Below the pieces are notes generated by a model. That model was not told the DNA's origin. It saw only the letters and a list, made by a program, of their open reading frames with translations, and did no database searches. 52,688 nucleotides of DNA from a virus (taxonomy: Duplodnaviria > Heunggongvirae > Uroviricota > Caudoviricetes), in the IMG/VR virus record IMGVR_UViG_2531839667_000013, one strand, 5' to 3'. The position numbers and the translations under genes were made by a program. Positions 1 through 36,800 of the stretch are shown one piece after another. Position 1 is the stretch's first letter. Every line of letters begins with the position of its first letter.

Positions 1-219
1 CTAACGCGGGTATGTAATCATTCTGGCAATGCTTAATGCCGCTGCTTTTTCCAGATTGGTGATATCCTGCTCCAGAGCGGACAGATTTTCAGCCTGCTTA
101 GCTCTGGCTTCATTGGCCCATTTCAGATCCTGCGCTGCATTAATTTTCTGGTGCATCCACTCATAAAGTTCATCATCGGTATAGTCTGGCGCGATGATGA
201 CGGGTTCTCGTTTCTGCAT
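1..219 (-). CDS. YdfC-like small protein of the dicB operon (72 aa)
   Basis: Complete minus-strand ORF (stop at 1-3); recalled similarity to Qin prophage YdfC; lies downstream of dicA-like repressor with ydfA/ydfB-like genes. Confidence 0.5.
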   Translation of the reverse strand: MQKREPVIIAPDYTDDELYEWMHQKINAAQDLKWANEARAKQAENLSALEQDITNLEKAAALSIARMITYPR

Positions 220-248
220 ACTGATTCCTCGCGGTGCTGTTTCGCTTA

Positions 249-377
249 TCAGCCGTTAGATTTTGCCGAGCTGGAAAGCGCCTGTTTAAACTCACTGAAG
301 CTGAGAGCTTCTTCGCCTTCGGCAAGGCCTTCGAAGTATTCTTCGTAAGCCTTTTCCATGATTGTGTCGAAATCCAT
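249..377 (-). CDS. YdfB-like small protein (42 aa)
   Basis: Hand-translated minus-strand ORF MDFDTIMEKAYEEYFEGLAEGEEALSFSEFKQALSSSAKSNG; below the ORF-track length cut-off; sits between ydfA-like and ydfC-like genes as in Qin. Confidence 0.45.
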   Translation of the reverse strand: MDFDTIMEKAYEEYFEGLAEGEEALSFSEFKQALSSSAKSNG

Positions 378-378
378 A

Positions 379-534
379 TCACTCACCTGAGTTTCTTTCC
401 AGCCAGCGACGGGCACCATTTTCGGTTTTAAACGTTTTGCTTTTGGTATACGTCATCGCGGTGAATGTGCCGTCCTGGTTGGGAAACACGCCGTACACCA
501 GAGATTCGTTGTTGCCAAGACCGATAGTATCCAT
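379..534 (-). CDS. YdfA-like small protein (51 aa)
   Basis: Internal ATG of track ORF 379..588 with GAGGT RBS upstream; MDTIGLGNNESLVYGVFPNQDGTFTAMTYTKSKTFKTENGARRWLERNSGE; first gene after the repressor on the minus strand. Confidence 0.5.
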   Translation of the reverse strand: MDTIGLGNNESLVYGVFPNQDGTFTAMTYTKSKTFKTENGARRWLERNSGE

Positions 535-735
535 GTTGACCTCATTTCCCCTTAACGCCGGAGTAGCGGAACTGTTTGCTGAGAACACCGTGCGGTGTCT
601 TGATGAGTGAAATTTAGAATAACCTAAGGCATATGGTCAAGATTTTTATGTAGAAAAACCTAAGTTTTTTGGTGTAAAAAACACAAGTGTTTGAAAGTTT
701 GTGCTTTTTATTACAGGGTGTGGAGAAAAAAGGGG

Positions 736-1143
736 TTATTTGTTTGCGCTTCTTTTGCGAGCTTTAAGTAGTTCTTCAAAAAGTTTGTTGAAATTTTCAA
801 CTCGAGCACGCATCTCTGACAACAGGGCCTTTTGCTCTGAGTCAGGCAGTGCGTCGAACAGTTGAAGTAACTCTTTTTGATCTTCTGTCAGAATGGCTGG
901 CTGATTATTCGGGATCGGTTCGCCTGGTTGTTTATCTTCATCCCCAAAAAGAAGCCAAGTCGGTGAGCACTGAAGCGCTTGGCTCAGTGCGAATAATCTT
1001 TTCCCCGCCGGCTGTGTTTCATCTCTTTCCCATTGAGAAATTGTTACGTGAGCCACTTTGACCAGCTTACCTAATGCGGCCTGAGACAGTTTTAATTTTT
1101 TACGCCTATGTAAGAGGCGAGCACCGAAGGTTTCGTTTTTCAT
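736..1143 (-). CDS. dicA: DicA-like HTH (XRE family) prophage repressor, 135 aa, no S24 peptidase domain
   Basis: HTH motif LSQAALGKLVKVAHVTISQWERDETQP; length and C-terminal ...RARVENFNKLFEELLKARKR match recalled DicA; divergent from a cro-like gene. Confidence 0.8.
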   Translation of the reverse strand: MKNETFGARLLHRRKKLKLSQAALGKLVKVAHVTISQWERDETQPAGKRLFALSQALQCSPTWLLFGDEDKQPGEPIPNNQPAILTEDQKELLQLFDALPDSEQKALLSEMRARVENFNKLFEELLKARKRSANK

Positions 1144-1219
1144 ATTAGGGAATTCTAATTTTTCTTGACTTAGGTTTCTCTACGATCTAGTTTCCTTAGG
1201 AAAATCTAAGGAGCTCGAT
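1144..1219. promoter_or_regulatory. Divergent promoter/operator region between repressor and cro-like gene
   Basis: Inverted repeat CCTTAGGAAAATCTAAGG (1194-1211) and TTGACT -35-like hexamer (1164-1169); related CTAAGG motifs recur at 620-680 on the other side of the repressor. Confidence 0.5.
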
Positions 1220-1447
1220 ATGTTGAAAATTGATGCTATAGCGTTTTTTGGCAGCAAAACAAAGCTTGCCAATGCCGCAGGAGTTAGGTTGGCAAGCATT
1301 GCTGCATGGGGGGAACTGGTTCCTGAAGGTCGCGCGATGCGCCTGCAAGAGGCATCCGGCGGGGAACTTCAGTACGACCCCAAAGTTTATGACGAATATC
1401 GTAAGGCAAAGCGGGCGGGGCGGTTGAACAATGAAAATCACCCCTGA
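1220..1447 (+). CDS. dicC: DicC/YdaS-family Cro-like regulator (75 aa)
   Basis: MLKIDAIAFFGSKTKLANAAGVRLASIAAW...; divergent from repressor; AAGGAG RBS. Confidence 0.75.
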   Translation: MLKIDAIAFFGSKTKLANAAGVRLASIAAWGELVPEGRAMRLQEASGGELQYDPKVYDEYRKAKRAGRLNNENHP

Positions 1448-1982
1448 ACAGGTTTGTGAGGCTCTGGATGCCTGGGTATGCCGACCAGGAATGACACAGG
1501 AGCAGGCGACGATATTAATCACGGAAGCATTCTGGGCTCTGAAAGAACGCCCGAACATCGATGTTCAACGCGTCACGTTTGATGATGGCGCGGTTGATCA
1601 ACGGGCGCTGGGCGTTAACCGGGTGAAGATATTCGAACGCTGGAAATCTATCGACACCAGGGATAAGCGGGAAAAATTCACGGCGCTGATTCCGGCAATT
1701 ATGGCGGCTATCCGGATCAGTGATTTCAGGTTGTATCGTGAAATTACTGACGGAAAAAGCATTACGTACATGATCGCCGGGTTAAACAAAGAATATGGCG
1801 ATGTGGTGGAGTCAGGGCTACTTTTTGCGGATCCAGCTGTTGTGGAACGTGAGACTGACGAACTTATAGAAAAAGCTATTGCTTTCAAGCGTGCGTATCG
1901 TCAGCAATACCAACATTACTTTGCAGATAAACAAATATCTGTCTGGGGTTCGTATGAGTATCGATGCGCTACGATGGGCTAA
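1431..1982 (+). CDS. YdaT-like regulatory protein (183 aa)
   Basis: Position after cro-like gene; motif ...KFTALIPAIMAAI... resembles recalled Rac YdaT; overlaps cro stop. Confidence 0.45.
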   Translation: MKITPEQVCEALDAWVCRPGMTQEQATILITEAFWALKERPNIDVQRVTFDDGAVDQRALGVNRVKIFERWKSIDTRDKREKFTALIPAIMAAIRISDFRLYREITDGKSITYMIAGLNKEYGDVVESGLLFADPAVVERETDELIEKAIAFKRAYRQQYQHYFADKQISVWGSYEYRCATMG

Positions 1983-2994
1983 AAAGGTGAAAACCGGCAG
2001 TTCATCCAGTAAGTCAGTATTGACCTGGCTTGCTGATATGTGCGGTGCCGATTTGTGTGCATACCCGTCTGTATCTGCACTGGCAGAAGTAACGGAACTG
2101 AACAAAAAGACTGTGCAGGACAGCTTACGACACCTGATGGAGATTGGGTTAATTGTTGATACCGGTGAGAGAAAAGGCCGGACAAAACAAATTGTGGTGT
2201 ACCGACTTATCGGTGTTGAAGAAAGTGTTACCGAGGATGAATACACCCAAAAACGGGAGTCTTTAAAGGTAGGTAAAATTGGTACTGTTAATAAAAACAG
2301 AACCGAAAACGGTTATGTTTCAGCACAAAACAGCCCCAAAAACGGAACTCTTTGCTGCATGGAAAATAACCAAAGACACCCAAATTTTCCATCAAAGACA
2401 CCCAAAAACGGATCACGGAACCCAAAGGAACCCAAAGATTTAAACCCCACACATAACGCACGCGAGAGTGCTCCGACCAGTGAGCAGGAAGTTTTGTCGT
2501 TACAGGCAGTCCCCCCTGTATTCCTGGATGGCCTGAGCGAACCCATCGGAAAATTTCCGATGACCGATAACTGGTATCCGTCACGGGATTTTCGACGACG
2601 GGCTGCGTTGTGGGGGATGGCTTTGCCGGAGACAGAATTCACACCTGCTGAACTTGCCGCATTCCGGGACTACTGGGCAGCGGAGGGGAAAGTGTTTACG
2701 CAGGTTCAGTGGGAGCAGAAATTCGCCCGTCACGTAAATCACGTCAGGGCGCAGGTTAAACCAGTCAGCAAGGGGGTAAACCATGCAGCAGCACCAGGTG
2801 GAACCGCATCACGGGCAGTTCAGGAAATTCGGGCAGCACGTGAGCAGTGGGAACGTGAAAACGGATTTATCAGCGACGGAAACGGCCTGGAAGCTGTGGG
2901 AGCTCATGGGGGAGGTTTATTCGAACCGCTGGACCCAGAAGAACGGGGCCGCACCTTCGAAGCTCTGGATTGCACAGATTGGCGCGATGACTGA
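1954..2994 (+). CDS. Replication initiation protein (O-like; N-terminal HTH, C-terminal DnaT-like region)
   Basis: MSIDALRWAKKVKTGSSSSKSVLTWLADMCGADLCAYPSVSALAEVTELNKKTVQDSLRHLMEIGLIV; position before P-like gene; start chosen at ATG 1954 rather than track start 1879. Confidence 0.6.
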   Translation: MSIDALRWAKKVKTGSSSSKSVLTWLADMCGADLCAYPSVSALAEVTELNKKTVQDSLRHLMEIGLIVDTGERKGRTKQIVVYRLIGVEESVTEDEYTQKRESLKVGKIGTVNKNRTENGYVSAQNSPKNGTLCCMENNQRHPNFPSKTPKNGSRNPKEPKDLNPTHNARESAPTSEQEVLSLQAVPPVFLDGLSEPIGKFPMTDNWYPSRDFRRRAALWGMALPETEFTPAELAAFRDYWAAEGKVFTQVQWEQKFARHVNHVRAQVKPVSKGVNHAAAPGGTASRAVQEIRAAREQWERENGFISDGNGLEAVGAHGGGLFEPLDPEERGRTFEALDCTDWRDD

Positions 2995-3448
2995 GCAGCA
3001 AATCCGGCAGGTCTGCCGCCAGTGCATGGACTGCTGCCGGGCGGGTGAAACATGGCCTCCGGACCTGGCTGAGTTTGTGGCGCTGATTTCGGAAAGCGGG
3101 GCCAATCCATTTGGTCTGACGGTGGATGCTGTGATGGAGGAGTACCGCCGCTGGCGCAATGAGTCCTGGCGATACGACGGAAGTGATAAGTACCCGTGGT
3201 CTCAGCCTGTGCTGTATCACATTTGCCTCGAGATGCGTTCAAAGGGGATTGAACGCCAGATGACCGAAGGGGAGTTAAAACGGCTTGCAGAACGGCAGCT
3301 GACGAAATGGGCAAAGCATGTTAGCAACGGCCTGAGTGTTCCGCCTGTCCGGCGACAACTGGCAGCACCCAAACGTCCTGCGGGACCAACGCCAATTGAG
3401 TTGCTGAAACAGGAATATGAACGCCGGAAAGCGGCTGGGTTTGTCTGA
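2783..3448 (+). CDS. Lambda P-like replication protein (helicase loader)
   Basis: C-terminal DKYPWSQPVLYHICLEMRSKGIERQMTEGELKRLAERQL matches recalled lambda P motif ESYPWKSNAHYWLV...; start uncertain (ATG 2783 with GGGGG RBS overlaps O-like gene by 212 nt; alternative ATG 2906). Confidence 0.7.
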   Translation: MQQHQVEPHHGQFRKFGQHVSSGNVKTDLSATETAWKLWELMGEVYSNRWTQKNGAAPSKLWIAQIGAMTEQQIRQVCRQCMDCCRAGETWPPDLAEFVALISESGANPFGLTVDAVMEEYRRWRNESWRYDGSDKYPWSQPVLYHICLEMRSKGIERQMTEGELKRLAERQLTKWAKHVSNGLSVPPVRRQLAAPKRPAGPTPIELLKQEYERRKAAGFV

Positions 3449-3480
3449 TTTGAGAAGTAATTTTTACCGGGAGGAAATTT

Positions 3481-4227
3481 ATGGAGACTGTTTTTGACGC
3501 ACTGAAAGCGATGGGAAAAGCCACGTCGGTAGAGCTGGCTGCGCGACTTGATATCAGTCGTGAAGAAGTGCTGAACGAGCTGTGGGAACTGAGAAAGGCT
3601 GGCTTCGTTGATAAAAGCGTATACACCTGGCGTGTGGCTTATAACAACGTTCAGCAGGAACAGCCAGCGCCGGCAGAACTGTCGGAAGAAACCACCACGG
3701 CAACAGTCGCTAAAATTTCGGAGTGCGATTTAACTGCGACGGTTGAACAACGCGGACCACAAACGGCTGATGAGCTGGCTACGTTGTTCGGTACAACATC
3801 ACGCAAAGTGGCTTCAACGCTGGCAATGGCAATCAGCAAAGGTCGTCTGATTCGTGTAAACCAGAACGGTAAATTTCGTTACTGCATGCCGGGCGATAAG
3901 TTACCAGCAGAGCCGAAATCCGTGCCGGTAACGGAAAATGATGGTAAAGCCTTTCCTCAGCCAGCAGGTGTTGCGTTACCAGTACAGGAAGCTGCAACAC
4001 AGGAAGATATTAAAACAGAAACTGTGGCTGATATTGTGCAATCGTTGCCATCGTTTACTGAAACGCGAGCGGATGACCTGGTTTTACCATCGCTGCATAT
4101 GGCAAACCGCGAATTGCGTCGGGCGAAAAGTCATGTCCAGAAGTGGGAGCGAGTCTGCGCCGCGCTGCGGGAGCTGAACAAGCACCGAGATATGGTTGCC
4201 GGGATTTGTCGGAAGTCCGGGCAATGA
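3481..4227 (+). CDS. Prophage protein with N-terminal winged-helix domain (DUF1627-like), 248 aa
   Basis: Strong RBS GGGAGGAAATTT; N-terminal [33 protein letters not shown]; common post-replication gene in E. coli prophages. Confidence 0.55.
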
Positions 4228-4388
4228 GCGGATGGTGCAGGCCTGAAATTATGATACTAACAATGAAGGTAAAATGCATCGGCAGTCTGATTGGTCGTAG
4301 TGAGGCGGCGGTCAGGATGAAAGCCCGGGTTAAGGGAATAAGCCTGATTCTGCGGGGTAATTTTCACCAGTCAACAAAATATCCGTAG
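4224..4388 (+). CDS. Small hypothetical protein (54 aa), possibly translationally coupled
   Basis: ATGA start/stop overlap with upstream gene at 4224-4227; no recognised homology. Confidence 0.25.
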
Positions 4389-5086
4389 CGCGATAACGGT
4401 CAAAAATCATGGCGCTGACACTTTTGTGCCACTGTAGATGACTGTACCTAAGTTCAGGGGAGAAGAACACGTCCGGTGGGATGGTCGGGCCAGATTTAAA
4501 GGGCAGGTCATGGCTCCAGCCAGTACGCTGGCAATGGAGGCTGCCTGGCTGGAAATTGATATGGGAACCACGCCACTCAGGGATTTACTGCCGGTCCAGA
4601 GAATAAATTCCTGTTACGGTTACACCACTGTGATCTTGCAAGTGCAGGAAAGTAGGTCTACACGGTAACGCGAGTGCGTGTAACTTTTGATGTTATTTCC
4701 GTAGAAACACCGGACAAATTTTCGCTGGCAGGTCATGCTGAAGGTATAAATCTGCAGATTATGGACAATTACGGATATCCGGCAAGAGCCGGAAAAAGCA
4801 TGCCGCCTCTAATTCTCAGTGGAAGATGGACTTGATTATACTCATTGCATTGTCAGAAATAGTTATCCATTAAAGGCTGGCTATTCCAAACAGGATGTTG
4901 ATTACAAAAATGTAATCAACATGTAAGGTTTATACTCTTCAATATGCGTATAATTTTCCTTATTTTGTTAACTTTAAATAACAAGCTATGCACGAGGTAA
5001 AGTCGGATAAGTTTATCTGGATGTAATATATATTATTTGTAGTGTTTATAACTTTATTTCATGATAACCAATAAAAGGAGTTTTTT

Positions 5087-5845
5087 ATGAGGAACATAAT
5101 GGCAGGTTTTTTAATATTCCTGTCTTCTGCTGCTTATGCTGATATCAATCTGTATGGTCCTGGTGGCCCGCATACAGCCTTGCTTGATGCAGCCAAACTT
5201 TATGCCGAAAAAACAGGTATTATAGTGAACGTTCATTACGGCCCACAGAACAAATGGAATGAAGATGCCAAAAAAAATGCAGATATCTTGTTTGGCGCAT
5301 CAGAACAATCTGCTCTGGCTATCATTCGGGACCATAAAGACAGCTTCAGTGAAAAAGATATTCAGCCTCTTTATCTGCGAAAAAGTATTTTACTGGTAAA
5401 GAAAGGTAATCCTAAAAATATCCGGAGTATTGACGACCTGACCAGACCCGGGATTGGCGTAATTGTTAATGATGGTGGTGGTACCAGTAATACATCAGGC
5501 ACTGGCGTCTGGGAAGATATTGCCGGACGTAAAGGGAATATAGAAACTGTCGCCGCAATCCGAAAAAATATTATTTTATATGCGCCCAATAGCGGAACTG
5601 CACGTAAGGCTCTTGAGAATCAGCCTGAAGCAGATGTCTGGATAACCTGGGCTGACTGGGCAGCCAGTAATCCAGAAATTGGTGATGTCGTGGAAATAGC
5701 GCCAGACTACGTGATATGGCGTGATATGAACATTACAGTACGTCAGGATGCAAATGATGAAACCCGTCGATTTGCAGAATGGCTACAAACCGATGAAGCG
5801 GCGCCTGCATTCAAAAAATATGGCTGGACCAGGAAAGGCACTTGA
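5087..5845 (+). CDS. Orphan periplasmic substrate-binding protein (ModA/PBP type-2-like) with signal peptide; cargo gene
   Basis: AAGGAG RBS; N-terminal signal peptide MRNIMAGFLIFLSSAAYA; embedded in AT-rich DNA (4700-5086) and followed by a terminator; no permease or ATPase partner nearby. Confidence 0.7.
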   Translation: MRNIMAGFLIFLSSAAYADINLYGPGGPHTALLDAAKLYAEKTGIIVNVHYGPQNKWNEDAKKNADILFGASEQSALAIIRDHKDSFSEKDIQPLYLRKSILLVKKGNPKNIRSIDDLTRPGIGVIVNDGGGTSNTSGTGVWEDIAGRKGNIETVAAIRKNIILYAPNSGTARKALENQPEADVWITWADWAASNPEIGDVVEIAPDYVIWRDMNITVRQDANDETRRFAEWLQTDEAAPAFKKYGWTRKGT

Positions 5846-5850
5846 CATCC

Positions 5851-5880
5851 TCCACGTCCTTCAGAACGTGGATTCTTTTT
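5851..5880 (+). terminator. Rho-independent terminator after the binding-protein gene
   Basis: Stem TCCACGT/ACGTGGA with loop, followed by TTCTTTTT. Confidence 0.6.
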
Positions 5881-6183
5881 CCGGATGCCGCGCCAGCGGC
5901 ATGTAGGGGCAGCTCACAAAACGGAAAAAATTGTACGCTAAGCCTCGCCAGGTGAACTGAATTCATTCCGATATGGGAATTCCCATATCGGACGAAAACG
6001 GCTTGCTGTAACGGCAGAGTTAAGTAGAATTGCTGCGGGTGCTTGAGGCTATCTGCCTCGGGCATGAACACCAACGGCAGATAGATAAAAGCCCCACCCG
6101 ACTATAAATCGAAGTGAGGCCCCTATATGCTCGTCACATATAGATTGCCTCTTACGGACCGAAAGGTCAAGGAGAAGCAGGCT

Positions 6184-6339
6184 ATGAAGCAGCAAAAGGC
6201 GATGTTAATCGCCCTGATCGTCATCTGTTTAACCGTCATAGTGACGGCACTGGTAACGAGGAAAGACCTCTGCGAGGTACGAATCCGAACCGGCCAGACG
6301 GAGGTCGCTGTCTTCACAGCTTACGAATCTGAGGAGTAA
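6184..6339 (+). CDS. hokD: Hok/Gef-family type I toxin (51 aa); in-frame upstream extension from 6127
   Basis: MKQQKAMLIALIVICLTVIVTALVTRKDLCEVRIRTGQTEVAVFTAYESEE near-identical to recalled HokD/RelF; fold-back region and terminator downstream. Confidence 0.85.
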   Translation: MKQQKAMLIALIVICLTVIVTALVTRKDLCEVRIRTGQTEVAVFTAYESEE

Positions 6340-6407
6340 GAGACCCGGCGGGGGAGAAATCCCTCGCCACCTCTGATGTGTCAGGCATTCTCAACGCACC
6401 CGCATTT

Positions 6408-6437
6408 AACCCGCTTCGGCGGGTTTTTGTTTTTATT
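6408..6437 (+). terminator. Rho-independent terminator at the 3' end of the hok mRNA
   Basis: AACCCGC-TTCG-GCGGGTT stem-loop followed by TTTTGTTTTT. Confidence 0.75.
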
Positions 6438-6559
6438 TTCAACGCGTTTGAAGTTCTGGGCGGTGCCGGAATAGAATCAAAAATACTTAAGTAGCGCGCA
6501 GGGATAAGAGGGATGGACCCCGAACAGGGGAGTGCTATTTATCTGGAAGGATTCTGTTG

Positions 6560-6820
6560 ATGAAAATCGAAGAATTACGTGAAATTTTTACTGAAGATGG
6601 CCTCTATACTGTGCGCGTTGAGAATGGTGCTATTGTCAGTCACTGCCGTATTAAATGTTTACAATCTAAACAAAGGAAGAGTGGTGCTGCGTTAATTTAT
6701 TTTGTGGATGAACTTGTGACAGATGGTTTTATTTTGCGTGAAAATGAATTTGTCACATCATTGCAGTCTCTGAAAGAAGCTGGGCTTAAGGCTGGTTTTT
6801 CTGCTTTTGAAGATGAGTAA
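6560..6820 (+). CDS. Hypothetical nin-region protein (86 aa)
   Basis: ATG with GGAAGGA RBS 8 nt upstream; coding-like composition; no recognised domain. Confidence 0.45.
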   Translation: MKIEELREIFTEDGLYTVRVENGAIVSHCRIKCLQSKQRKSGAALIYFVDELVTDGFILRENEFVTSLQSLKEAGLKAGFSAFEDE

Positions 6821-6886
6821 ATTCATCTACAATTCAGCACAGGGCTGAACCCCTGTTGAGTAACACTGTGCCACCGGAGAAAACCG

Positions 6887-8228: not shown

Positions 8229-8588
8229 ATGCGTATAGAGTTTGTTTTGCCTTACCCGCCGACGGTGAACACCTACTGGCGACGTCGTGGCAGCACATAT
8301 TTTGTATCAAAAGCCGGTGAGCGTTATCGCCGGGATGTGGCACTTATTGTTCGCCAGCAGCGGCTGAAATTAAACCTGTCCGGAAGGCTGGCGATAAAGA
8401 TTATTGCCGAGCCACCGGATAAGCGCCGCCGTGACCTGGACAATATTCTGAAAGCGCCGCTGGATGCGCTGACGCATGCGGGGGTGCTAATGGACGATGA
8501 GCAGTTTGATGAAATCAATATTGTACGTGGTCAGCCAGTATCTGGTGGACGGCTGGGTGTGAAGATTTACAAAATTGAGAGTGAGTGA
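8229..8588 (+). CDS. rusA: Holliday junction resolvase RusA
   Basis: MRIEFVLPYPPTVNTYWRRRG...DKRRRDLDNILKAPLDALTHAGVLMDDEQF matches RusA motifs (DRRRRDLDN). Confidence 0.9.
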   Translation: MRIEFVLPYPPTVNTYWRRRGSTYFVSKAGERYRRDVALIVRQQRLKLNLSGRLAIKIIAEPPDKRRRDLDNILKAPLDALTHAGVLMDDEQFDEINIVRGQPVSGGRLGVKIYKIESE

Positions 8589-8596
8589 GCGTAAAT

Positions 8597-9127
8597 ATGA
8601 TATATCCGGAAATTACAGGCAAAAGCGGCGAACATTTACGCCTGAACACGCTGGAAGCAGTCTGGATCCAGGGGAAATTACGGATGTGGGGGCGGTGGTC
8701 GTATATCGGTGGGGGTAAATCCGGAAATATGTTTAACCGGTTACTGGTTTCGAAAAAGCTGACGAAAACAGCAGTTAATGAGGTTTTACGCAGCATGAAG
8801 AAATCCGGGCTGGAAAAACCGGAACTTGAGGCATTTTTTCGGGATATGACCAGAGGGAAGCAGAAGAGCTGGTTGTCACATTGTACAGACACAGAGGCGT
8901 TGATTATTGATCGCGTTATCAGTGAGGTGCTTGGGGAATATCCCGGGCTAATCAATATTCTCCGGCAAAGGTACGAAGGACGGGGAATGAGTAAGAGAAA
9001 AATGGCAGAATGTTTAAATCGTACTCACCCGGAATGGTGTTTCAGCACATGTGAGAAACGTATTGCAGGTTGGTTAGCCGTGGCTGAACACATGCTTTAT
9101 GTACCTATGCACGATTCATTTCGATAA
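8597..9127 (+). CDS. Late-gene antitermination protein Q
   Basis: Position after rusA and before tR' and lysis/late genes; recalled similarity to Q antiterminators of E. coli prophages; start could also be GTG 8585. Confidence 0.75.
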   Translation: MIYPEITGKSGEHLRLNTLEAVWIQGKLRMWGRWSYIGGGKSGNMFNRLLVSKKLTKTAVNEVLRSMKKSGLEKPELEAFFRDMTRGKQKSWLSHCTDTEALIIDRVISEVLGEYPGLINILRQRYEGRGMSKRKMAECLNRTHPEWCFSTCEKRIAGWLAVAEHMLYVPMHDSFR

Positions 9128-9221
9128 AAAAAGCTTGCTTTTTTACGCAGAAACAGCTTGAATTCCTGTAAGCTTCGCAAAGCTGTATCGCGAGGCGAAA
9201 TGCAAGTTTTTTCGCACAAGG

Positions 9222-9247
9222 AAGCCACCGGAAGGTGGTTTTTTTGT
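9222..9247 (+). terminator. tR'-like rho-independent terminator downstream of Q
   Basis: AAGCCACCGGAAGGTGGTTTTTTT hairpin plus T-run; the late promoter and qut site should lie in 9128-9221. Confidence 0.7.
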
Positions 9248-9368
9248 GTCCGTAATATACAGCAGCGCAATAAATTCGCTGGTGGTTATTAATACCGTTC
9301 TTTCAGGTTGCTGGCTTTTTCGACAAGAGTTATTGGTGTGTCACGTTAACCGGAAAAGGGAAAAAGAC

Positions 9369-9566
9369 ATGCTGAAACAGCAGGATATGACAGAAACCGC
9401 CAGAGTGGTGTTTAATGAATTAAGCGTTACCGACCCGGCGACAGTCGGGGAGATTGCGCAGAATACTTACCTTTCACGCGAACGCTGCCAGTTAATACTG
9501 ACCCAGCTGGTTATGGCGGGTCTGGCAGACTATCAGTTTGGTTGTTACAGACGCCTTCAGTCCTGA
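9369..9566 (+). CDS. Small hypothetical protein (65 aa)
   Basis: ATG with AAGGG RBS; followed by terminator at 9553-9578; no recognised domain. Confidence 0.4.
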   Translation: MLKQQDMTETARVVFNELSVTDPATVGEIAQNTYLSRERCQLILTQLVMAGLADYQFGCYRRLQS

Positions 9567-9578
9567 AGGCTTTTTTAT
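9553..9578 (+). terminator. Rho-independent terminator
   Basis: GCCTTCAG-TC-CTGAAGGC followed by TTTTTTAT. Confidence 0.6.
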
Positions 9579-9716
9579 TTGTGGTAAATGGGCGGCTGGT
9601 GGGTGTAAGGGGCACCCACCAGCCATCTGCTCATGCGTTGGGTTCACAAGCAAACCTCAGGCCCACTGCTTTGCGCAAAAGCAGAATGAGCCTATCAGAG
9701 ACAGGCTTAATGATCC

Positions 9717-10766
9717 ATGCTTAATACTGTAAAAATATCCAGTTGTGAGTTAATCAACGCCGACTGCCTGGAATTTATGCGGTCGTTACCCGAAAATTCT
9801 GTTGACCTGATAGTCACGGACCCGCCGTACTTCAAAGTGAAACCCGAGGGCTGGGATAACCAGTGGGCGGGTGATGAAGATTACCTGAAGTGGCTGGACC
9901 AGTGTCTTGCGCAGTTCTGGCGGGTGCTGAAACCTGCCGGAAGTCTTTACCTGTTCTGTGGCCATCGTCTGGCATCTGACACCGAAATCATGATGCGTGA
10001 GCGGTTTAACGTGCTGAACCATATCATCTGGGCAAAGCCGTCCGGACGCTGGAACGGGTGCAACAAGGAAAGCCTGCGGGCGTATTTCCCCGCCACAGAG
10101 CGCATTCTGTTCGCAGAGCATTATCAGGGGCCGTATCGTCCGAAAGATGCCGGGTATGAGGCGAAGGGTAGGGCACTGAAACAGCATGTGATGGCCCCGC
10201 TGATTGCTTACTTTCGTGATGCGCGCGCTGTCCTGGGGATAACGGCAAAACAGATTGCAGATGCCACAGGAAAGAAAAACATGGTGTCGCACTGGTTCAG
10301 TGCCGGTCAGTGGCAGCTGCCGAACGAAAGCGATTATCTGAAATTACAGGCACTGTTTGCCCGGGTGGCAGAAGAGAAGCATCAGCGGGGTGAACTGGAA
10401 AAGCCCCACCACCAGCTGGTGGATACGTATGCCTCTCTGAACCGACAGTATGCGGAGCTGCAGAGTGAATATAAGCATCTGCGGCGGTATTTTGGTGTGA
10501 CGGCGCAGGTGCCGTACACGGATGTGTGGACACATAAACCGGTGCAGTTCTATCCCGGGAAACATCCGTGCGAAAAACCGGCAGAAATGCTGCAGCAGAT
10601 AATCAGCGCAAGCAGTCGTCCGGGTGACCTGGTTGCAGATTTTTTTATGGGCTCAGGTTCAACGGTAAAAGCGGCACTGGCGCTCGGGCGTCGTGCAATT
10701 GGCGTTGAGCTGGAGACTGAACGTTTTGAGCAGACAGTCAGGGAAGTTCAGGATTTAATCGTTTGA
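9717..10766 (+). CDS. DNA N6-adenine methyltransferase (beta class)
   Basis: Motif IV DPPY (VTDPPYF) precedes motif I FFMGSGST near the C-terminus. Confidence 0.85.
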   Translation: MLNTVKISSCELINADCLEFMRSLPENSVDLIVTDPPYFKVKPEGWDNQWAGDEDYLKWLDQCLAQFWRVLKPAGSLYLFCGHRLASDTEIMMRERFNVLNHIIWAKPSGRWNGCNKESLRAYFPATERILFAEHYQGPYRPKDAGYEAKGRALKQHVMAPLIAYFRDARAVLGITAKQIADATGKKNMVSHWFSAGQWQLPNESDYLKLQALFARVAEEKHQRGELEKPHHQLVDTYASLNRQYAELQSEYKHLRRYFGVTAQVPYTDVWTHKPVQFYPGKHPCEKPAEMLQQIISASSRPGDLVADFFMGSGSTVKAALALGRRAIGVELETERFEQTVREVQDLIV

Positions 10767-10815
10767 AACGGATGAGATTGCAGAATTAATTTCGCACCAT
10801 TATTATTCTGGTCCC

Positions 10816-10891
10816 GGCCCTTTAGCTCAGTGGTGAGAGCGAGCGACTCATAATCGCCAGGTCGCTGGTTCAAATCCAGCAAGGGCCACCA
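10816..10891 (+). tRNA. tRNA-Ile (anticodon CAU, ileX/ileZ-like, lysidine type)
   Basis: Cloverleaf: acceptor GGCCCTT/AAGGGCC, anticodon loop CTCATAA, T-loop GGTTCAAATCC, 3' ACCA; close to recalled E. coli ileX. Confidence 0.85.
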
Positions 10892-10991
10892 TCACATACC
10901 GCCATTAGCTTATCAGGAAGAGCAGACGACACCATAACAGGGTTGTTGGTGCGGGGGCGGGTCCCCGATGGCGGTCCATTATCGGTATTCT

Positions 10992-11068
10992 GCGTTGTTA
11001 GCTCAGCCGGACAGAGCAATTGCCTTCTAAGCAATCGGTCACTGGTTCGACTCCACTACAACGCGCCA
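10992..11068 (+). tRNA. tRNA-Arg (anticodon UCU)
   Basis: Acceptor GCGTTGT/ACAACGC, anticodon loop CTTCTAA, T-loop GGTTCGACTCC, 3' GCCA. Confidence 0.85.
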
Positions 11069-11081
11069 CACTTATTTTCCA

Positions 11082-11106
11082 GGCTCGCTTCGGCGGGCCT
11101 TTTTTG
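11082..11106 (+). terminator. Rho-independent terminator after the tRNA genes
   Basis: GGCTCGC-TTCG-GCGGGCC followed by TTTTTTG. Confidence 0.6.
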
Positions 11107-11237
11107 TATCTGCGCCACGCCCGGTGCATATCAACCACAGAGCCTTTCGGGGGTGAGCTTACGGAGTGGTCAGTGTGACTTTCTCTGTGGGCAGATCGCT
11201 CCCGGGCGTTGGCTCACCCACCCAAAGGAACGTCACG

Positions 11238-11670
11238 ATGTTTGGTATTTTTGGTAAAAAAAGCCCGCAGAGCGGCAACGGAAATTAAAAAGTTTGAAAA
11301 ACGCGATCTGGCACAGGTGGTGATTAACGCCGCATACCTGGTGGCCTGTGCAGATGGTGAATGTGAGGCTTCCTAGAAAGCGAAGATCGAACAGGTACTG
11401 CGTAATCAGCCTGCGCTGTCCGCGTTTACGTCAGAAATTAATGCGATTAGCGCAACCATTATCGGTCAGCTGGATACGAACTTTAAAATTGGTCGTCGTG
11501 CGGCGTTACGTGAGATCGAGGATGTGAAACACGATACGCGTGAAGCGGAAGATGTGCTGGATGTGGCGGTGGCCATTGCGGAGGCAGACGGCGAAATTGA
11601 GCCGGAAGAGCGCAAGGTGCTGGAAGAGATTGCCGGTGTTCTGGGTCTTCGTCTGGAGAATCACCTGTGA
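11238..11670 (+). pseudogene. TerB-like (tellurite-resistance TerB domain) gene disrupted by a frameshift and an in-frame amber codon
   Basis: ATG 11238 with AAGGAA RBS reads MFGIFGKKSPQSGNGN then stops at 11286; the +1 frame continues with TerB-like repeats (VINAAYLVACADGECEAS, VAIAEADGEIEPEERKVLEEIAGVLGL) but carries TAG at 11374-11376; A7 run at 11256-11262 is the likely indel site. Confidence 0.55.
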
Positions 11671-11834
11671 CGGTAAAACTGCGCCTGACTGTGGCTGCAC
11701 TCCTGCTGTTTCTGGTGGTGATGGTGGATTTCACCAGCAGAATCATGTCGGTGCTGGCGGATGGGGTGCTGGTCTGCGGCATTGTGGTATTGCTGTGGCC
11801 GGTGATAAAAAGAAACAGCCTGCATAATGCTTGA
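11667..11834 (+). CDS. Small hydrophobic membrane protein (55 aa)
   Basis: GTG overlapping the TerB-like stop; TVKLRLTVAALLLFLVVMVDFTSRIMSVLADGVLVCGIVVLLWPVIKRNSLHNA has two predicted TM segments; below track cut-off. Confidence 0.3.
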   Translation: MTVKLRLTVAALLLFLVVMVDFTSRIMSVLADGVLVCGIVVLLWPVIKRNSLHNA

Positions 11835-12035
11835 TTTTTTTGTTTGCTGTTTATTAAAAACACTTCTGCATGGTGAATCCCCCTGTGCGGAGGGGCAATC
11901 AGCGAGTAGGTATATGGGATAATCGCGGATTCAGGTGCTGGTACTGAATTCACCGGGAGGCACCCGGCACCATGCTTTGCCACAAAAGTGTTATTTCTGT
12001 TTTTCTCAAACTATCATCGTTATCCCTTTATTTCC

Positions 12036-12063
12036 GGCTGCGCATGGCGCGGCCTTTTTTTTA
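12036..12063 (+). terminator. Rho-independent terminator upstream of nanS-p
   Basis: GGCTGCGC-ATG-GCGCGGCC followed by a T9 run. Confidence 0.55.
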
Positions 12064-12148
12064 CGACCAGCCACTGGCAGATGGTCATCCTGTGATTTGA
12101 TTCCGGTTCCGGCTTTTTAACTCTGTTCCTGTACACGGGAGAAATTCG

Positions 12149-13999
12149 ATGTCGATTAAACATTATGATGTTGTCAGGGCGGCGTCGCCGTCAGACCTTG
12201 CGGAAAAGCTGACACACAAACTGAAAGAGGGCTGGCAGCCGTTTGGTAGTCCGGTGGCCATAACCCCTTATACCCTGATGCAGGCGATTGCAGCAGAAGG
12301 TGATGTGGTGGTCAGTGGTGCAACTGAGCCGGATTGGTACTACGTCATCGTACTGGCCGGGCAGTCCAATGCAATGGCTTACGGGGAAGGGCTTCCGCTT
12401 CCGGATTCATACGATGCTCCGGATCCGCGCATTAAACAGCTGGCGCGCCGCAGTACAGTTACGCCGGGTGGGGCTGCCTGCAGATATAACGATATTATTC
12501 CGGCCGACCACTGCCTGCATGATGTGCAGGATATGAGTACGCTGAATCATCCGAAGGCAGACCTGAGCAAAGGGCAGTACGGCTGTGTCGGCCAGGGCTT
12601 ACATATTGCCAAAAAACTGCTTCCGTATATCCCGAATAACGCGGGGATCCTGCTGGTACCATGCTGTCGTGGTGGTTCTGCATTCACCCAGGGCGCTGAG
12701 GGGACATTCAGTGCGGACACGGGGGCCAGCCAGGATTCGGCACGCTGGGGTGTGGGTAAACCGTTATATCAGGACCTGATTGCGCGCACTAAAGCTGCAT
12801 TACAGAAGAACCCGAAAAATGTGTTGCTGGCGGTGTGCTGGATGCAGGGAGAGTTTGACATGAGCGCCGCCACCCACGCACAGCAACCTGCGCTGTTTAC
12901 AGCCATGCTGACACAGTTTCGTGCTGACCTCTCCGTGTTTAACGCGCAGTGCCATGGTGGCAGTGCTGCAGATGTGCCGTGGATTTGTGGTGACACGACG
13001 TATTACTGGAAAAATACCTACGGCACGCAGTACAACACCATTTACGGGGCGTACAAAAACAGGGAGAGTGAGGGCGTTTATTTTGTGCCCTTCATGACAG
13101 ACGGTAACGGCGTCAATACCGCCACTAACGCGCCGGCAGAAGATCCGGATATTCCGGCATCAGGATATTACGGTGCGGCATCGAGAACGAATGGAAACCA
13201 GGTATCATCAAACCGCCCGACACATTTCAGTTCATGGGCGCGCAGGAGCATTATTCCGGATCGTATGGCAACCGCTATTCTGAACGCAGCCGGGCGCACC
13301 TCAGCCTTCATCAGTGGTAAGGCACCGGAAATCAAACCCTCGCCCGGCGGCAACACGCCATCGGGTCCGTCTGCAGATACGTCCGTTCGCACAATCTCCC
13401 TGCTGCCGGCAGCCGGAGAGGCTGCTGCGCAGGGCTGGAGCATTAAGGATGGCGGAATTCAGTTGTCAGATGGTGTATTTAAGATCACCAAGCAGAGCAA
13501 TAAAACCTGGTCCCTGACGCATCCGGTGGATGACGCAATTACCCTGCTGACACAGGGCGGCAGACTGACCTGTAAGTTCCGCCTGTCAGGCGCACTGACC
13601 AACAATCAGTTCGGGCTGGGGATTTATCTGTATACGGATGCTCCCGTTCCTGATGGTGTGGCGATGACGGGTACCGGTAATCCGTTCCTGATGTCGTACT
13701 TCACTCAGACCACTGACGGCAGAGTGAATCTGATGCATCACAGGAAAGCCGGAAACACGAAGCTGGGGGAGTTCGGCGATTACGGTAACGACTGGCAGAC
13801 GCTGGAGCTGGTGTTCACCGCCGGCAGTGCCACGGTTACTCCGAAACTGAATGGAGTGGCTGGCCCGGCATTCCAGGTTATAAAAGACGGTCTGACACTG
13901 GGACTGAATGCGCTGACGCTGACGGATGTTACAAAAAATGCAGCGTATGGCGTTGAGATAGAAAGTCTGGTGCTGGAGATAAATGCACCGGCAGCATAA
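12149..13999 (+). CDS. Phage sialate O-acetylesterase NanS-p-like protein (DUF1737 N-terminus plus SASA esterase domain), 616 aa
   Basis: MSIKHYDVVRAASPSDLAEKL N-terminus and size/position (between Q/tRNA region and lysis cassette) as for NanS-p of Stx phages; GQSN motif in VIVLAGQSNAMAYGEG. Confidence 0.8.
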   Translation: MSIKHYDVVRAASPSDLAEKLTHKLKEGWQPFGSPVAITPYTLMQAIAAEGDVVVSGATEPDWYYVIVLAGQSNAMAYGEGLPLPDSYDAPDPRIKQLARRSTVTPGGAACRYNDIIPADHCLHDVQDMSTLNHPKADLSKGQYGCVGQGLHIAKKLLPYIPNNAGILLVPCCRGGSAFTQGAEGTFSADTGASQDSARWGVGKPLYQDLIARTKAALQKNPKNVLLAVCWMQGEFDMSAATHAQQPALFTAMLTQFRADLSVFNAQCHGGSAADVPWICGDTTYYWKNTYGTQYNTIYGAYKNRESEGVYFVPFMTDGNGVNTATNAPAEDPDIPASGYYGAASRTNGNQVSSNRPTHFSSWARRSIIPDRMATAILNAAGRTSAFISGKAPEIKPSPGGNTPSGPSADTSVRTISLLPAAGEAAAQGWSIKDGGIQLSDGVFKITKQSNKTWSLTHPVDDAITLLTQGGRLTCKFRLSGALTNNQFGLGIYLYTDAPVPDGVAMTGTGNPFLMSYFTQTTDGRVNLMHHRKAGNTKLGEFGDYGNDWQTLELVFTAGSATVTPKLNGVAGPAFQVIKDGLTLGLNALTLTDVTKNAAYGVEIESLVLEINAPAA

Positions 14000-14908: not shown

Positions 14909-15223
14909 CTACCTGAGCTTTGGTGATAGTAAGTTGAAAATTCGCATTTTTTGCTGACATGCGTAACGAGAATCCCATAAGCAGGGAGGACTTAATTCTT
15001 CATTAACCCATGCGTTGATATTATGTTTCAGCCGTTGAAGCATCAGCGGTGTTAATGTTGTGGTAATAATATCCAGCGTTTTATGTGAGATCTTACCGTA
15101 AGGGTCTGCAAGAATGCTGCTTGTTGCTTCGTTATTATCTGCCATCAGAAGAAGTAACTCTGATTTAACGTTTTCTGTCATTAGTTGTAAAAATCTTCTG
15201 CGCAAACTTTCTTTACTGTTCAT
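14909..15223 (-). CDS. YdfR-like (DUF1327-type) protein inserted between holin and endolysin, opposite strand
   Basis: 104-aa minus-strand ORF in an AT-rich insert; same position and size as Qin ydfR (103 aa); the call rests on position and length, not sequence identity. Confidence 0.4.
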   Translation of the reverse strand: MNSKESLRRRFLQLMTENVKSELLLLMADNNEATSSILADPYGKISHKTLDIITTTLTPLMLQRLKHNINAWVNEELSPPCLWDSRYACQQKMRIFNLLSPKLR

Positions 15224-17142: not shown

Positions 17143-17457
17143 ATGCTACATGATCACGTGGCAGAATGTCTGGAGAAAAAAGGACTGTACCGGAGAGCAG
17201 CTGAACGATGGGCAAAAGTGATGGTACAGCTAAGTGATGACCAGAAAAGAAAAGTGGCGGCACAGAAACGAGCAGAGTGTTTGCGTAAGGCGCGCCGGAC
17301 TCCGGTTTCACCGGTGAACCTGACCGAAATAAAACAAGCGGTCAACAGACTACATTCTGAGTTGGGAATGGGATTTGAAGAGCGGCGGGTATTCCGACGA
17401 TATAAAGGGACAGGAGAACAGAATACGTCCGGAAACGCGCGGTCAAAAAAATGCTAA
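17143..17457 (+). CDS. Small regulator, possibly ANR (AraC negative regulator) family
   Basis: GGAGG RBS; helical N-terminal segment RRAAERWAKVMVQLSDDQKRKVAAQKRAECLRKA resembles the ANR two-helix pattern as recalled; preceded by an unusual T/G-rich tract. Confidence 0.35.
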   Translation: MLHDHVAECLEKKGLYRRAAERWAKVMVQLSDDQKRKVAAQKRAECLRKARRTPVSPVNLTEIKQAVNRLHSELGMGFEERRVFRRYKGTGEQNTSGNARSKKC

Positions 17458-33588: not shown

Positions 33589-33834
33589 AGCATAAAAAAA
33601 TCCCGCAGTGTATGGAGGCTGCGGGAACAGAAAATGAAGATTAACCACAGGGAGTTTTGTTTTTATTGGCCCGAAAAAACTGTAACGCCCGGGAATGATA
33701 TCTGCCACGGGGGCGTACAGAAAATGTGAAGAAATTCAGAAATTTTATTCCGTCATGACACAGGCACCCTCCGGGGTGCCTGTCGTTTTTGGGGCATAAA
33801 CAGATTCAGACATCAGACAGGAGAGGGGGACAGA

Positions 33835-36800
33835 GTGGGTAAAGGTGGCGGCAAGGCGCACACGCCGGTTGAGGCAAAGGACAATCTTAAGTCCACGCAG
33901 ATGATGAGCGTGATTGATGCCATTGGTGAAGGGCCGATTGAAGGTCCGGTGAAGGGGCTGCAGAGTATCCTGGTGAACAAAACCCCGCTGACGGACACGG
34001 ACGGTAATCCTGTGATACATGGTGTGACAGCGGTCTGGCGCGCCGGGGAGCAGGAGCAGACACCACCTGAAGGCTTTGAGTCCTCCGGGGCGGAAACCGC
34101 ACTGGGCGTGGAAGTGACGAAAGCAAAGCCGGTGACGCGCACCATTACGTCCGCGAACATTGACCGCCTGCGGGTCACCTTCGGGGTGCAGTCACTGTTG
34201 GAGACCACCTCAAAGGGCGACCGTAATCCCTCTTCTGTCCGACTGCTGATTCAGTTGCAGCGTAACGGTAACTGGGTGACGGAAAAGGATGTCACCATTA
34301 ACGGCAAGACCACCTCGCAGTTTCTGGCGTCGGTGATTCTGGATAATCTGCCTGAGCGGCCCTTTAACATCCGGATGGTCCGGGAGACAGCGGACAGCAC
34401 CTCGGACCAGCTGCAGAATAAGACGCTCTGGTCGTCATACACCGAAATCATCGATGTGAAACAGTGCTACCCGAACACGGCGATTGTGGGGCTGCAGGTG
34501 GATGCGGAGCAGTTTGGCGGTCAGCAGATGACGGTGAACTACCATATCCGAGGTCGCATCATCCAGGTGCCGTCAAACTATGACCCGGAAAAACGCACGT
34601 ACAGCGGCATCTGGGACGGCAGCCTGAAACCGGCATACAGCAATAACCCGGCCTGGTGCCTGTGGGACATGCTGACTCACCCGCGCTACGGCATGGGAAA
34701 ACGCCTGGGGGCGGCGGATGTGGACAAGTGGGCGCTGTATGCCATTGCGCAGTACTGCGACCAGACGGTCCCGGATGGTTTCGGGGGCACAGAGCCGCGG
34801 ATGACCTTTAATGCGTACCTGTCACAACAGCGTAAGGCGTGGGACGTTCTCAGTGATTTCTGCTCGGCGATGCGCTGTATGCCGGTATGGAACGGCCAGA
34901 CGCTGACGTTCGTTCAGGACCGCCCGTCGGATGTGGTGTGGCCGTACACCAACTGCGATGTGGTGGTGGATGATAACGGCGTGGGGGTTCGCTACAGCTT
35001 CAGCGCCCTGAAGGACCGCCACACGGCGGTGGAGGTGAATTACACCGACCCGCAGAACGGCTGGCAGACCTCCACGGAACTGGTGGAAGACCCGGAAGCC
35101 ATACTGCGCTACGGGCGCAACCTGCTGAAGATGGATGCGTTCGGCTGCACCAGTCGCGGTCAGGCCCACCGTGCCGGGCTGTGGGTGATAAAGACCGGAC
35201 TGCTGGAAACGCAGACGGTGGATTTCACGCTCGGGTCACAGGGGCTACGTCACACACCCGGTGACATTATTGAAATCTGTGATAACGACTATGCCGGGAC
35301 CATGACCGGCGGACGTATCCTGTCCATCGATGCCGCCAGCCGCACCCTGACACTGGACCGTGAGGTGACCCTGCCGGAGACAGGTGCCGCCACGGTGAAC
35401 CTGATTAACGGCAGCGGTAAGCCGGTGAGCGTGGCCATCACTGCACACCCCGCGCCGGACCGGATACAGGTCAGCACCCTGCCTGATGGTGTGGAGACAT
35501 ACGGTGTATGGGGACTCTCCCTGCCGTCACTGCGTCGTCGCCTGTTCCGCTGTGTCTCCATCCGGGAAAACACGGACGGCACCTTTGCCATCACGGCGGT
35601 GCAGCACGTACCGGAAAAAGAAGCCATCGTGGATAACGGGGCCAGCTTTGAGCCGCAGTCAGGCACCCTGAACAGCGTTATTCCACCGGCAGTGCAGCAC
35701 CTGACGGTGGAGGTGAGCGCGGCTGACGGTCAGTATCTGGCACAGGCGAAATGGGACACGCCGCGGGTGGTGAAGGGCGTGCGCTTCAGTCTGCGCCTGA
35801 CCAGTGGAAGCGGTCAGGACAGCCGTCTGGTGACCACCGCCATCACTGCGGATACAGAGCATCGTTTCAGTGGTCTGCCGCTCGGGGAATACACCCTGAC
35901 AGTCAGGGCAATTAACAGTTATGGCCAGCAGGGGGAACCGGCCACCACCACGTTCAGGATTAATGCACCTGCGGTACCCGCCACGATTGAGCTGACACCG
36001 GGCTATTTTCAGATAACAGCGGTCCCGCGTCTTGCGGTGTATGACCCGACGGTACAGTTTGAGTTCTGGTTTTCGGAAAAACGCATCACGAACACGGCAC
36101 AGGTGGAAAAATCTGCCCGTTATCTGGGGAGCGGCAGTCAGTGGACTGTCCAGGGAAGCCGGATTAAGCCGGGGACGGATTTCTGGTTTTACGTGCGCAG
36201 CGTCAACCTGGTGGGGAAATCTGCGTTTGTGGAAGTCAGCGGGCAGCCCAGCAATGATGGTGAAGGGTATCTGGAATTTTTCCGGGAAAAAATAGGAAAA
36301 CTGCATCTGGCTCAGGGGTTGTGGGAACTGATAGATAACAGCCAGCTTGCAGATGAGATGGCGGAGATGAAGACCACCATCACCGAAACCCGCAATGAAA
36401 TCACACAGACGGTCAGTAAAACACTGGAGAACCAGAGCGCCACCATACAGCAGATACAGCGCGTGCAGAAGGACACAAATGATGACCTGGCTGCGCTGTA
36501 CATGCTGAAGGTTCAAAAAACGAAAGACGGCATTCCCTATGTGGCCGGGATTGGTGCAGGGATTGAGGATACTGATGGCCAGCCACTGAGCAACATACTG
36601 CTGCTGGCTGACCGTATCGCGATGATAAATCCGGAGAGCGGCAACAGCACTCCGTTATTTGTGGCGCAGGGGAATCAGCTGTTCATGAACGACGTGTTCC
36701 TGAAACGACTGTTTGCGGTGAGCATCACCTCGTCCGGCAATCCCCCAGCATTTTCCCTGACGCCGGAAGGAAAGCTGACGGCAAGGAACGCGGATATCAG

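Follow-up and report, generated by a model that had tools for sequence, protein, structure and literature searches.

The late operon of this lambdoid prophage very probably carries a tciA-tciB moron in the slot that holds stxAB in Shiga toxin-converting phages, with tciA inactivated by two inherited lesions and with tciB, the adjoining small RNA (sRNA) gene, and the tRNA genes left intact. The window (the whole 52,688-nucleotide stretch of DNA analysed, IMG/VR record IMGVR_UViG_2531839667_000013) is a lambda-like prophage of E. coli with type III secretion effector genes aboard. Its genes include what looks like a full lambda-type morphogenesis set, together with those for NleB2 and NleF (type III effectors), Lom, and PerC. 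From approximately 6.9 kb to 46.3 kb, it shares 98.5-98.7% identity with a prophage of E. coli Z1323HEC0423. PGAP flags a frameshifted J gene and nleC and nleH pseudogenes in that relative.

The cassette itself is already known: it is the tciA/tciB moron (PHROG 632 and PHROG 1470, phage P1) in an ordinary, previously annotated arrangement. Of 5426 complete E. coli genomes, 667 contain the full 1.39-kb segment at a coverage of at least 80%, typically with copies in several prophages of the genome. Among approximately 170 related loci, the order ileZ, (relic), argO, terB, tciB, STnc100, nanS-p is dominant, and stx was absent from all of those examined. Copies with both lesions (A7 and TAG, described below), those of two genomes 99.7-99.9% identical to the segment among them, are marked by PGAP as TerB-family pseudogenes containing an internal stop. 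Because the arrangement is common and PGAP already flags the pseudogene, the interest assigned to this region by an earlier, sequence-only reading was too high. Two points are modestly new: the exact, RNA-bounded exchange point common to stx2AB and tciA-tciB, and the probable null status of the widely annotated 'intact' A7 allele (discussed below).

Organization of the late region and comparison with stx2AB

Gene calls and Pfam searches place the late genes in the order Q-like antiterminator, methylase, tRNAs, slot, NanS-p, P21-type holin, lysozyme, and Rz/Rz1 (Table 1). Apart from tR' (see below), this agrees with the sequence-only reading, which had proposed the order Q, tR', methylase, tRNA-Ile/tRNA-Arg, cargo slot, NanS-p, and lysis.

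Table 1. Features of the late region, with positions in the window and the evidence for each assignment.
Feature	Position	Strand	Basis
Q-like late antiterminator, DUF1133 family	8585-9127	+	Pfam DUF1133, 367 bits; Phage_antitermQ PF06530, 35.1 bits (cut-off 26)
N6/N4 DNA methyltransferase	9717-10766	+	Pfam PF01555, 151.8 bits; inside the 91% block common with the Stx2a_1447 methylase region
tRNA-Ile2, ileZ-type, anticodon CAT	10816-10891	+	ARAGORN; Rfam tRNA, 72.5 bits
Degenerate tRNA relic, argN position	10899-10977	+	Alignment with argN of Stx2a_1447
tRNA-Arg, argO-type, anticodon UCU	10992-11068	+	ARAGORN (TCT); Rfam, 60 bits; argO alignment
Intrinsic terminator after the tRNAs, left slot edge	11081-11105	+	8-bp stem, 6 G-C pairs, T run
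tciA-like TerB-family pseudogene	11238-11669	+	Translation; Pfam TerB, PHROG 632, 2JXU; PGAP annotation of near-identical copies
tciB-like DUF3927 gene, 55 aa, intact	11667-11834	+	Pfam PF13064, 62.6 bits (cut-off 25); PHROG 1470
STnc100/PasD-family sRNA gene, right slot edge	11839-12011	+	Rfam RF02076, 101.5 bits (gathering score 47)
Intrinsic terminator	12036-12064	+	8-bp stem, 7 G-C pairs, T8
NanS-p type sialate O-acetylesterase	12149-13999	+	Pfam DUF1737, SASA, and DUF6645

The region had also been described as Stx-phage-like but devoid of either Shiga toxin subunit, and alignment with the Stx2-converting phage Stx2a_1447 upholds both the backbone and the position of the cargo. A blastn comparison shows 91% identity across window positions 9237-11127, a block spanning a 65-aa ORF, the methylase, ileZ, the argN position, argO, and the terminator, all of which are shared with the Stx2a_1447 / 933W-type stx2AB locus. 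This left block stops 31 nt short of stx2A. Homology restarts at 11850, corresponding to a point 87 nt past stx2B and within the STnc100 copy of Stx2a_1447 itself, and runs on through nanS-p, the holin, and the endolysin, so that the sRNA and these three genes are the features shared to the right of the cargo. In place of stx2AB (L006, 7390-8630), the window has positions 11128-11849 carrying tciA-tciB, the cargo measuring 722 bp here versus 1358 bp in the Stx2 phage. Because collinear homology flanks both cargos, tciA-tciB sits at the stx2AB position. On the left, the exchange point is limited by the tRNA-Arg terminator, which is also conserved in the Stx2a phage, and on the right by the STnc100-family sRNA.

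The two loci differ in other respects. The Q gene belongs to the DUF1133 family in the window and to another family in Stx2a_1447 (homology begins only at 9237), argN is degenerate in the window, and the NanS-p gene has approximately 70% nucleotide identity to its Stx2a phage counterpart. A tblastn search of the entire window, using Stx2A and Stx2B as queries, identified no stx homology (best E = 0.66), in accordance with the earlier claim: the window has the late backbone of an Stx-converting phage, but neither stxA nor stxB. As no stx is carried, it has no bearing on toxin risk.

The tRNA cluster to the left of the slot contains two recognisable tRNA genes. ARAGORN names the CAT tRNA Met and PGAP names a near-identical copy tRNA-Ile; its body is identical to ileZ of Stx2a_1447, and it would be expected to read AUA after lysidine modification. 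The 100 nt between the two tRNAs align with argN of Stx phages; the relic in this interval retains the acceptor and T arms of Stx2a_1447 argN, with a rewritten anticodon arm. It folds into a cloverleaf-like outline in which the anticodon arm is aberrant, and it yields neither an ARAGORN call nor an Rfam tRNA match at E <= 1. A suppressor tRNA in the cluster was considered and ruled out: the two called tRNAs have CAT and TCT anticodons, and the element between them is not recognisable as a tRNA. This relic, both intrinsic terminators (11081-11105 and 12036-12064), and the STnc100-family sRNA were all absent from the sequence-only reading.

The sRNA match begins four bases beyond tciB and extends over positions 1-206 of the RF02076 model. 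The window copy differs from this model in having no aligned 3' terminator part: the model's 3' terminator stem is gapped in the alignment, and a strong terminator is located 25 nt further on, which is probably the 3' end of the sRNA transcript. A member of the STnc100 family is also found 3' of stx2B in Stx2a_1447 (L006, 8705-8920), a position that agrees with a published report in which STnc100 lies 75 nt to the 3' side of the stx2 operon (PMC12370729). A 2026 preprint relates PasD to STnc100, beside a sialate esterase gene, and includes TerB in its list of conserved genes surrounding the prophage sRNAs PasA and PasC (bioRxiv 10.64898/2026.05.13.724894). The window copy is in the place reported for STnc100/PasD sRNAs, following the cargo and immediately preceding the sialate esterase gene.

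Terminator and promoter scans located neither tR' nor pR' in the late region of the window. A single terminator-like hairpin (9553-9570) is present in the Q-to-methylase interval, and no plus-strand sigma-70-like promoter was found in 9050-12200, hence neither a tciA promoter nor pR' was placed. The slot lies between the tRNA cluster with its terminator and the STnc100-family sRNA, ahead of nanS-p and the lysis genes. By analogy with stx2, it would be transcribed chiefly from the late promoter after induction, with Q-modified RNA polymerase reading through both terminators.

The right-hand gene of the cassette is intact. TciB matches PHROG 1470 over positions 1-54 of 54 (E = 5.6e-30), and its hydropathy profile shows a pair of hydrophobic stretches (approximately residues 5-22 and 26-48), such that the 55-aa ORF is a DUF3927 protein of the membrane type that had been anticipated. 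Its GTG start overlaps the tciA stop (GTGA) and is preceded by its own GGAG 8 nt upstream, from which tciB would still be translatable, with coupling to tciA presumably lost. In 20 of 21 loci with the A7 allele, tciB stays 55 aa in length.

tciA and its two lesions

The tciA reading frame is interrupted twice. The ATG at 11238 opens with MFGIFGKK and a stop is reached after 16 codons. An A7 run at 11256-11262 (codons 7-9) contains a +1 insertion relative to A6 alleles, which places the TerB frame at +1 from the ATG frame, and within the TerB frame codon 46 is changed from GAG to TAG (11374-11376). Following repair of both lesions (one A removed and TAG translated as Glu), the 143-aa product matches Pfam TerB PF05099 with 42.3 bits (cut-off 24.4) over profile positions 7-109 of 118, and PHROG 632 over positions 1-143 of 143 (E = 2e-68). 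The solved TerB structure 2JXU is similar in sequence (E = 5.7e-8, residues 15-137 versus 21-144), and in NCBIfam there is a sub-threshold match only, to the DjlA TerB-like domain (residues 87-138). By profile match and by sequence similarity to a solved TerB, tciA is a member of the TerB family; the window copy has no intact ORF.

An N-terminus of MFGIF(G/K)KK(A/T)RRAA is in frame with the ATG across nucleotide-divergent E. coli alleles that differ synonymously. At 40-70% identity, P1 TciA and the Erwinia jumbo-phage and Pseudomonas phage homologues share this ATG-start N-terminus, and E46, the residue at the TAG codon in the window, is invariant among the homologues compared. Given this conservation, A7 represents a genuine frameshift and TAG a genuine nonsense mutation. 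Translation supports the sequence-only reading on the +1 frameshift in A7 and the in-frame TAG, and the conserved N-terminus and invariant E46 justify its description of the gene as decayed. Judged from these sequences, A6 with the ATG start is the ancestral form and A7 is a later +1 insertion. Expansion from A6 to A7 carries the ATG-initiated frame into the early stop, and the codon for the invariant Glu46 has become TAG. The cassette in the window most likely contributes no TciA function.

Programmed recoding would reconcile both lesions with a functional gene: a +1 slip on the A run combined with amber read-through would produce full-length TciA at a low, regulated level. On the sequence A AAA AAA G, a tRNA-Lys can shift and pair again in the +1 frame, and the doubly lesioned A7+TAG allele is widespread. 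The slip site, however, is followed by AGC rather than by a slow or rare codon or a stop, no stimulatory element is seen, the base after TAG is an A (not a read-through context), and neither of the phage tRNA anticodons is that of a suppressor. Homologues also code the same residues in one frame, several of them without an A run, all four combinations of the two alleles exist, and A7 alleles gain nonsynonymous changes. With this evidence, recoding has a close to negligible probability, and we retain the interpretation that tciA is inactivated.

Distribution and coding status of the A7 and TAG alleles

Both lesions were traced in complete E. coli genome records by exact matching of 74-mers. The A7 74-mer was present in 554 records, and its A6 version was present in eight. 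The TAG 74-mer was identified in 520 records, including O157, O26, O103, O111, O121, and O145 as well as non-STEC isolates, and the GAG-allele 74-mer was identified in 297. Homopolymer runs are classic sites of error and the lesions of the window are known from assembled sequence alone, so that the frameshift and stop might be attributed to sequencing or assembly with the gene intact in the organism. Identical alleles nevertheless recur in hundreds of independent assemblies, the two lesions occur together in 31 IMG/VR contigs, and the two closest genomes (described above) have both A7 and TAG. The lesions are not sequencing errors on these grounds, and an artefact is scarcely credible.

In a pattern scan of IMG/VR, A7 was found with TAG in 31 cases and with GAG in 15, and A6 was found with GAG in 37 and with TAG in two. 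The presence of all four A-run/codon-46 combinations points to recombination or recurrent change in run length. Through descent and recombination, the two lesions circulate among E. coli prophages singly as well as in combination. Inheritance of this type can be set against a second possibility, that the A6/A7 run is a phase-variation switch turning the moron on or off in lysogen populations. A6 and A7 are found on otherwise near-identical backgrounds, and there exist both an A8 variant and A6+TAG recombinants or revertants. Six or seven A residues are, however, short for high-rate slippage, the ratio of A7 to A6 on the window background (554:8 records) resembles stable inheritance rather than frequent switching, and other tciA lineages encode the same residues without a long A run (TTC AAA AAG AAA ACC). 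A switch is considered very improbable.

Whether A7 is a null allele in the absence of TAG is a separate matter. Among 22 distinct intact alleles, pN/pS is 0.052; intact tciA therefore encodes a protein under strong purifying selection. Substitutions private to A7 alleles show a different pattern: in a biased sample of loci that provided six such substitutions only, five are nonsynonymous (E46*, I70M, S71R, D117E at an invariant Asp, and R125C) and one is synonymous, a ratio that fits neutrality and argues against intact-like constraint (binomial p = 3e-4). Because of this 5:1 ratio, A7 is probably null, and TAG probably arose mostly on an already dead A7 background. Translation signals are consistent with this. 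A Shine-Dalgarno sequence (AAGGA) is located 8 nt from the ATG at 11238 and 12 nt from a weak TTG at 11242; as this spacing favours the ATG, ribosomes should initiate there and stop after 16 codons.

RefSeq/PGAP treat A7/GAG copies differently, annotating them as intact with a TTG start at 11242 (the 142-aa WP_001303509.1). According to this interpretation only TAG inactivates the gene, and A7 is an ordinary, working allele whose translation begins at the TTG. The TTG-start product is nearly identical to the ATG-start protein (MVFLVKK... versus MFGIFGKK...), differing only at residues 2-6 and keeping their hydrophobic character, and for this reason the A7 lesion alone may be less than fully null. 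A7 is also by far the commonest form of the window sequence type in complete E. coli (554 records versus 8). These points are outweighed by the spacing of AAGGA, by conservation of the ATG-frame N-terminus down to homologues of 40% identity, by a private substitution ratio that is incompatible with the constraint on intact alleles, and by the accumulation of the nonsense mutation mostly on the A7 background (31 versus 2). A functional A7 allele is consequently judged improbable, and we continue to regard A7 as a probable null.

A broader proposal is that tciA has been lost repeatedly and independently in E. coli prophages (through A7, TAG, and an A8 variant with a compensating indel) while tciB, the STnc100 sRNA, and the tRNAs stay intact. 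We view this as doubtful. If true, TciA would either be selected against in lysogens or be turned on and off by mutation at the A run, with the corollary that the TTG-start TerB proteins of 142 aa, annotated as 'intact' across hundreds of RefSeq genomes, would be null alleles.

Predicted function and implications

The same two-gene unit, in which a TerB-domain protein of approximately 143 aa is followed by a hydrophobic protein of approximately 55 aa, is found in phage P1 and in the lambdoid phage JLK-2012. The TciA encoded by the window is 97% identical to that of JLK-2012 and 40% identical to that of P1. The window differs from both phages in that tciA is a pseudogene (A7 and TAG) and tciC is absent. 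Its unit is in a lambdoid late-operon slot, whereas the P1 unit is in the ban region. Phage tRNA genes adjoin tciA-tciB in P1, JLK-2012, and the window alike. A general linkage between tciAB and tRNA genes was also examined and proved incomplete: tRNA genes adjoin the cassette in P1, JLK-2012, and an Erwinia jumbo phage, yet this adjacency recurs in no more than four of 20 species-representative genomic loci.

PHROGs classes both genes as morons (PHROG 632, 'tellurite resistance'; PHROG 1470, 'TciB-like') and has a further family, PHROG 3920, for the C-terminal remnant of 48 aa that broken copies retain. The P1 annotation, 'tellurite or colicin resistance or inhibition of cell division', is by homology. 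TerB belongs to the ter cluster for tellurite, colicin, and phage inhibition. TciA has the same domain as ter cluster TerB (Klebsiella, 2JXU, PF05099) and the TerB-like domain of DjlA, the latter match being weak; in contrast to TerB of the ter cluster, TciA is a stand-alone phage gene product with none of terZACDE nearby. PADLOC gave no meaningful defence-system match for TciA or TciB (best PDC-S48, E = 0.006 over 35 residues). Literature searches for tciA/tciB retrieved no experimental function, the results being swamped by Trypanosoma 'TcIa/TcIb' and otherwise consisting of P1-like plasmid papers, and neither DUF3927 nor a TerB connection with prophages, Shiga toxin, or morons yielded anything specific.

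Intact TciA would be a 143-aa cytoplasmic TerB-domain protein and TciB a 55-aa membrane peptide, with both names given by homology only. The most plausible role for the intact pair, as predicted from sequence, would be a membrane-associated TerB module that modifies the envelope or stress physiology of the lysogen or the induced cell.

In Stx-type lambdoid phages, cargo is exchanged at a precisely defined point, the toxin slot, and in non-toxigenic relatives this slot is usually occupied by tciA-tciB. The A7 allele, which is annotated as intact in more than 500 complete E. coli genomes, behaves in a pseudogene-like manner, and this affects comparisons of gene content among STEC prophages.

Flanks of the cargo slot

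The cargo slot, which holds stx2AB in Stx phages and tciA-tciB in the window, has as its conserved right flank an sRNA gene of the STnc100/PasD family: in the window this gene lies between tciB (immediately 5') and nanS-p (3'), and a member of the same family also follows stx2B in the Stx2a phage Stx2a_1447. Published STnc_100 qPCR primer sites (PMC12370729) were found on reading the window sequence.

At the argN position, the middle one of the phage tRNA genes, the window has a degenerate tRNA that none of the tools used called as a tRNA. The annotation of this position varies in related prophages (argN, tRNA-Lys, tRNA-Val or pseudo-tRNA). Phage tRNA genes adjoin tciA-tciB in unrelated phage lineages, among them P1, an Erwinia jumbo phage and JLK-2012, with compared loci L192, L188 and L182 listed as further cases. 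This linkage is recurrent but not general: among 20 species-representative genomic loci, only 4 have a tRNA within approximately 1 kb of tciA-tciB.

Features of the window and of compared loci (L-numbers)
Feature	Location	Strand	Remarks
sok antisense RNA	window 6037-6186	+	Rfam RF01794, 103.9 bits
Degenerate tRNA, argN position	window 10899-10977	+	acceptor, D and T arms retained; anticodon arm rewritten
STnc100/PasD-family sRNA gene	window 11839-12011	+	Rfam RF02076, 101.5 bits
Terminator of sRNA region	window 12036-12064	+	
ORF, 104 aa (ORF listing)	window 14909-15223	-	PHROG 1853, function unknown; PGAP extent in relative, 14909-15181
perC	window 17143-17454		
lom	window 37380-38000		
nleB2	window 39829-40806		type III secretion effector gene; 100% identical to Z1323HEC0423 copy
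nleF	window 42417-42983		type III secretion effector gene; 100% identical to Z1323HEC0423 copy
sRNA after stx2B, Stx2a_1447	L006 8705-8920		STnc100/PasD family
sodC, closest relative	L173 33614-34446	-	Cu/Zn superoxide dismutase
tciA-tciB + tRNA, P1	L174 1616-3276		tRNA-Asn, tRNA-Thr, tciABC, tRNA-Ile2(CAT)
tciA-tciB + tRNA, Erwinia phage ChrisDB	L175 587-2814		jumbo phage
tciA-tciB + tRNA, JLK-2012	L001 4792-5786		
A7/GAG tciA annotated intact	L005 3442-3870 and equivalents		O157:H7 strain 4276; TTG start corresponds to window position 11242

Other cargo and mosaicism

The window is an effector-carrying lambdoid prophage of the EPEC/EHEC type without stx, encoding nleB2 and nleF as well as lom and perC. 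Its sok gene belongs to a hok/sok (hokD-type) toxin-antitoxin locus, with DUF968, RusA and Q-like genes downstream. The PHROG 1853 ORF is inserted between holin and endolysin, where other prophages instead have a plus-strand YdfR-family gene.

Unlike the window, the closest relative (the prophage of E. coli Z1323HEC0423) carries a sodC moron flanked by the tail assembly genes and J; tblastn of the window gave no sodC match, and the corresponding window site is 33611-33835. At this site, too, the cargo of the prophage is variable. Collinearity with the relative is lacking in the window's early, left part (1-6865), which shares only short patches of 86-98% identity with it; across the late and structural region the identity is 98.5-98.7%. 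This pattern is consistent with a mosaic prophage having a recombination break near 6.87 kb.

RefSeq annotation of A7/GAG tciA alleles

The tciA alleles with the frameshifted A7 run but an intact Glu codon 46 (A7/GAG) appear in RefSeq as an intact 142-aa protein with a TTG start codon (WP_001303509.1). The private substitutions of A7 alleles (5 nonsynonymous to 1 synonymous) suggest that the A7/GAG alleles are nulls. If so, the RefSeq calls would represent a frameshifted gene rescued systematically by annotation.
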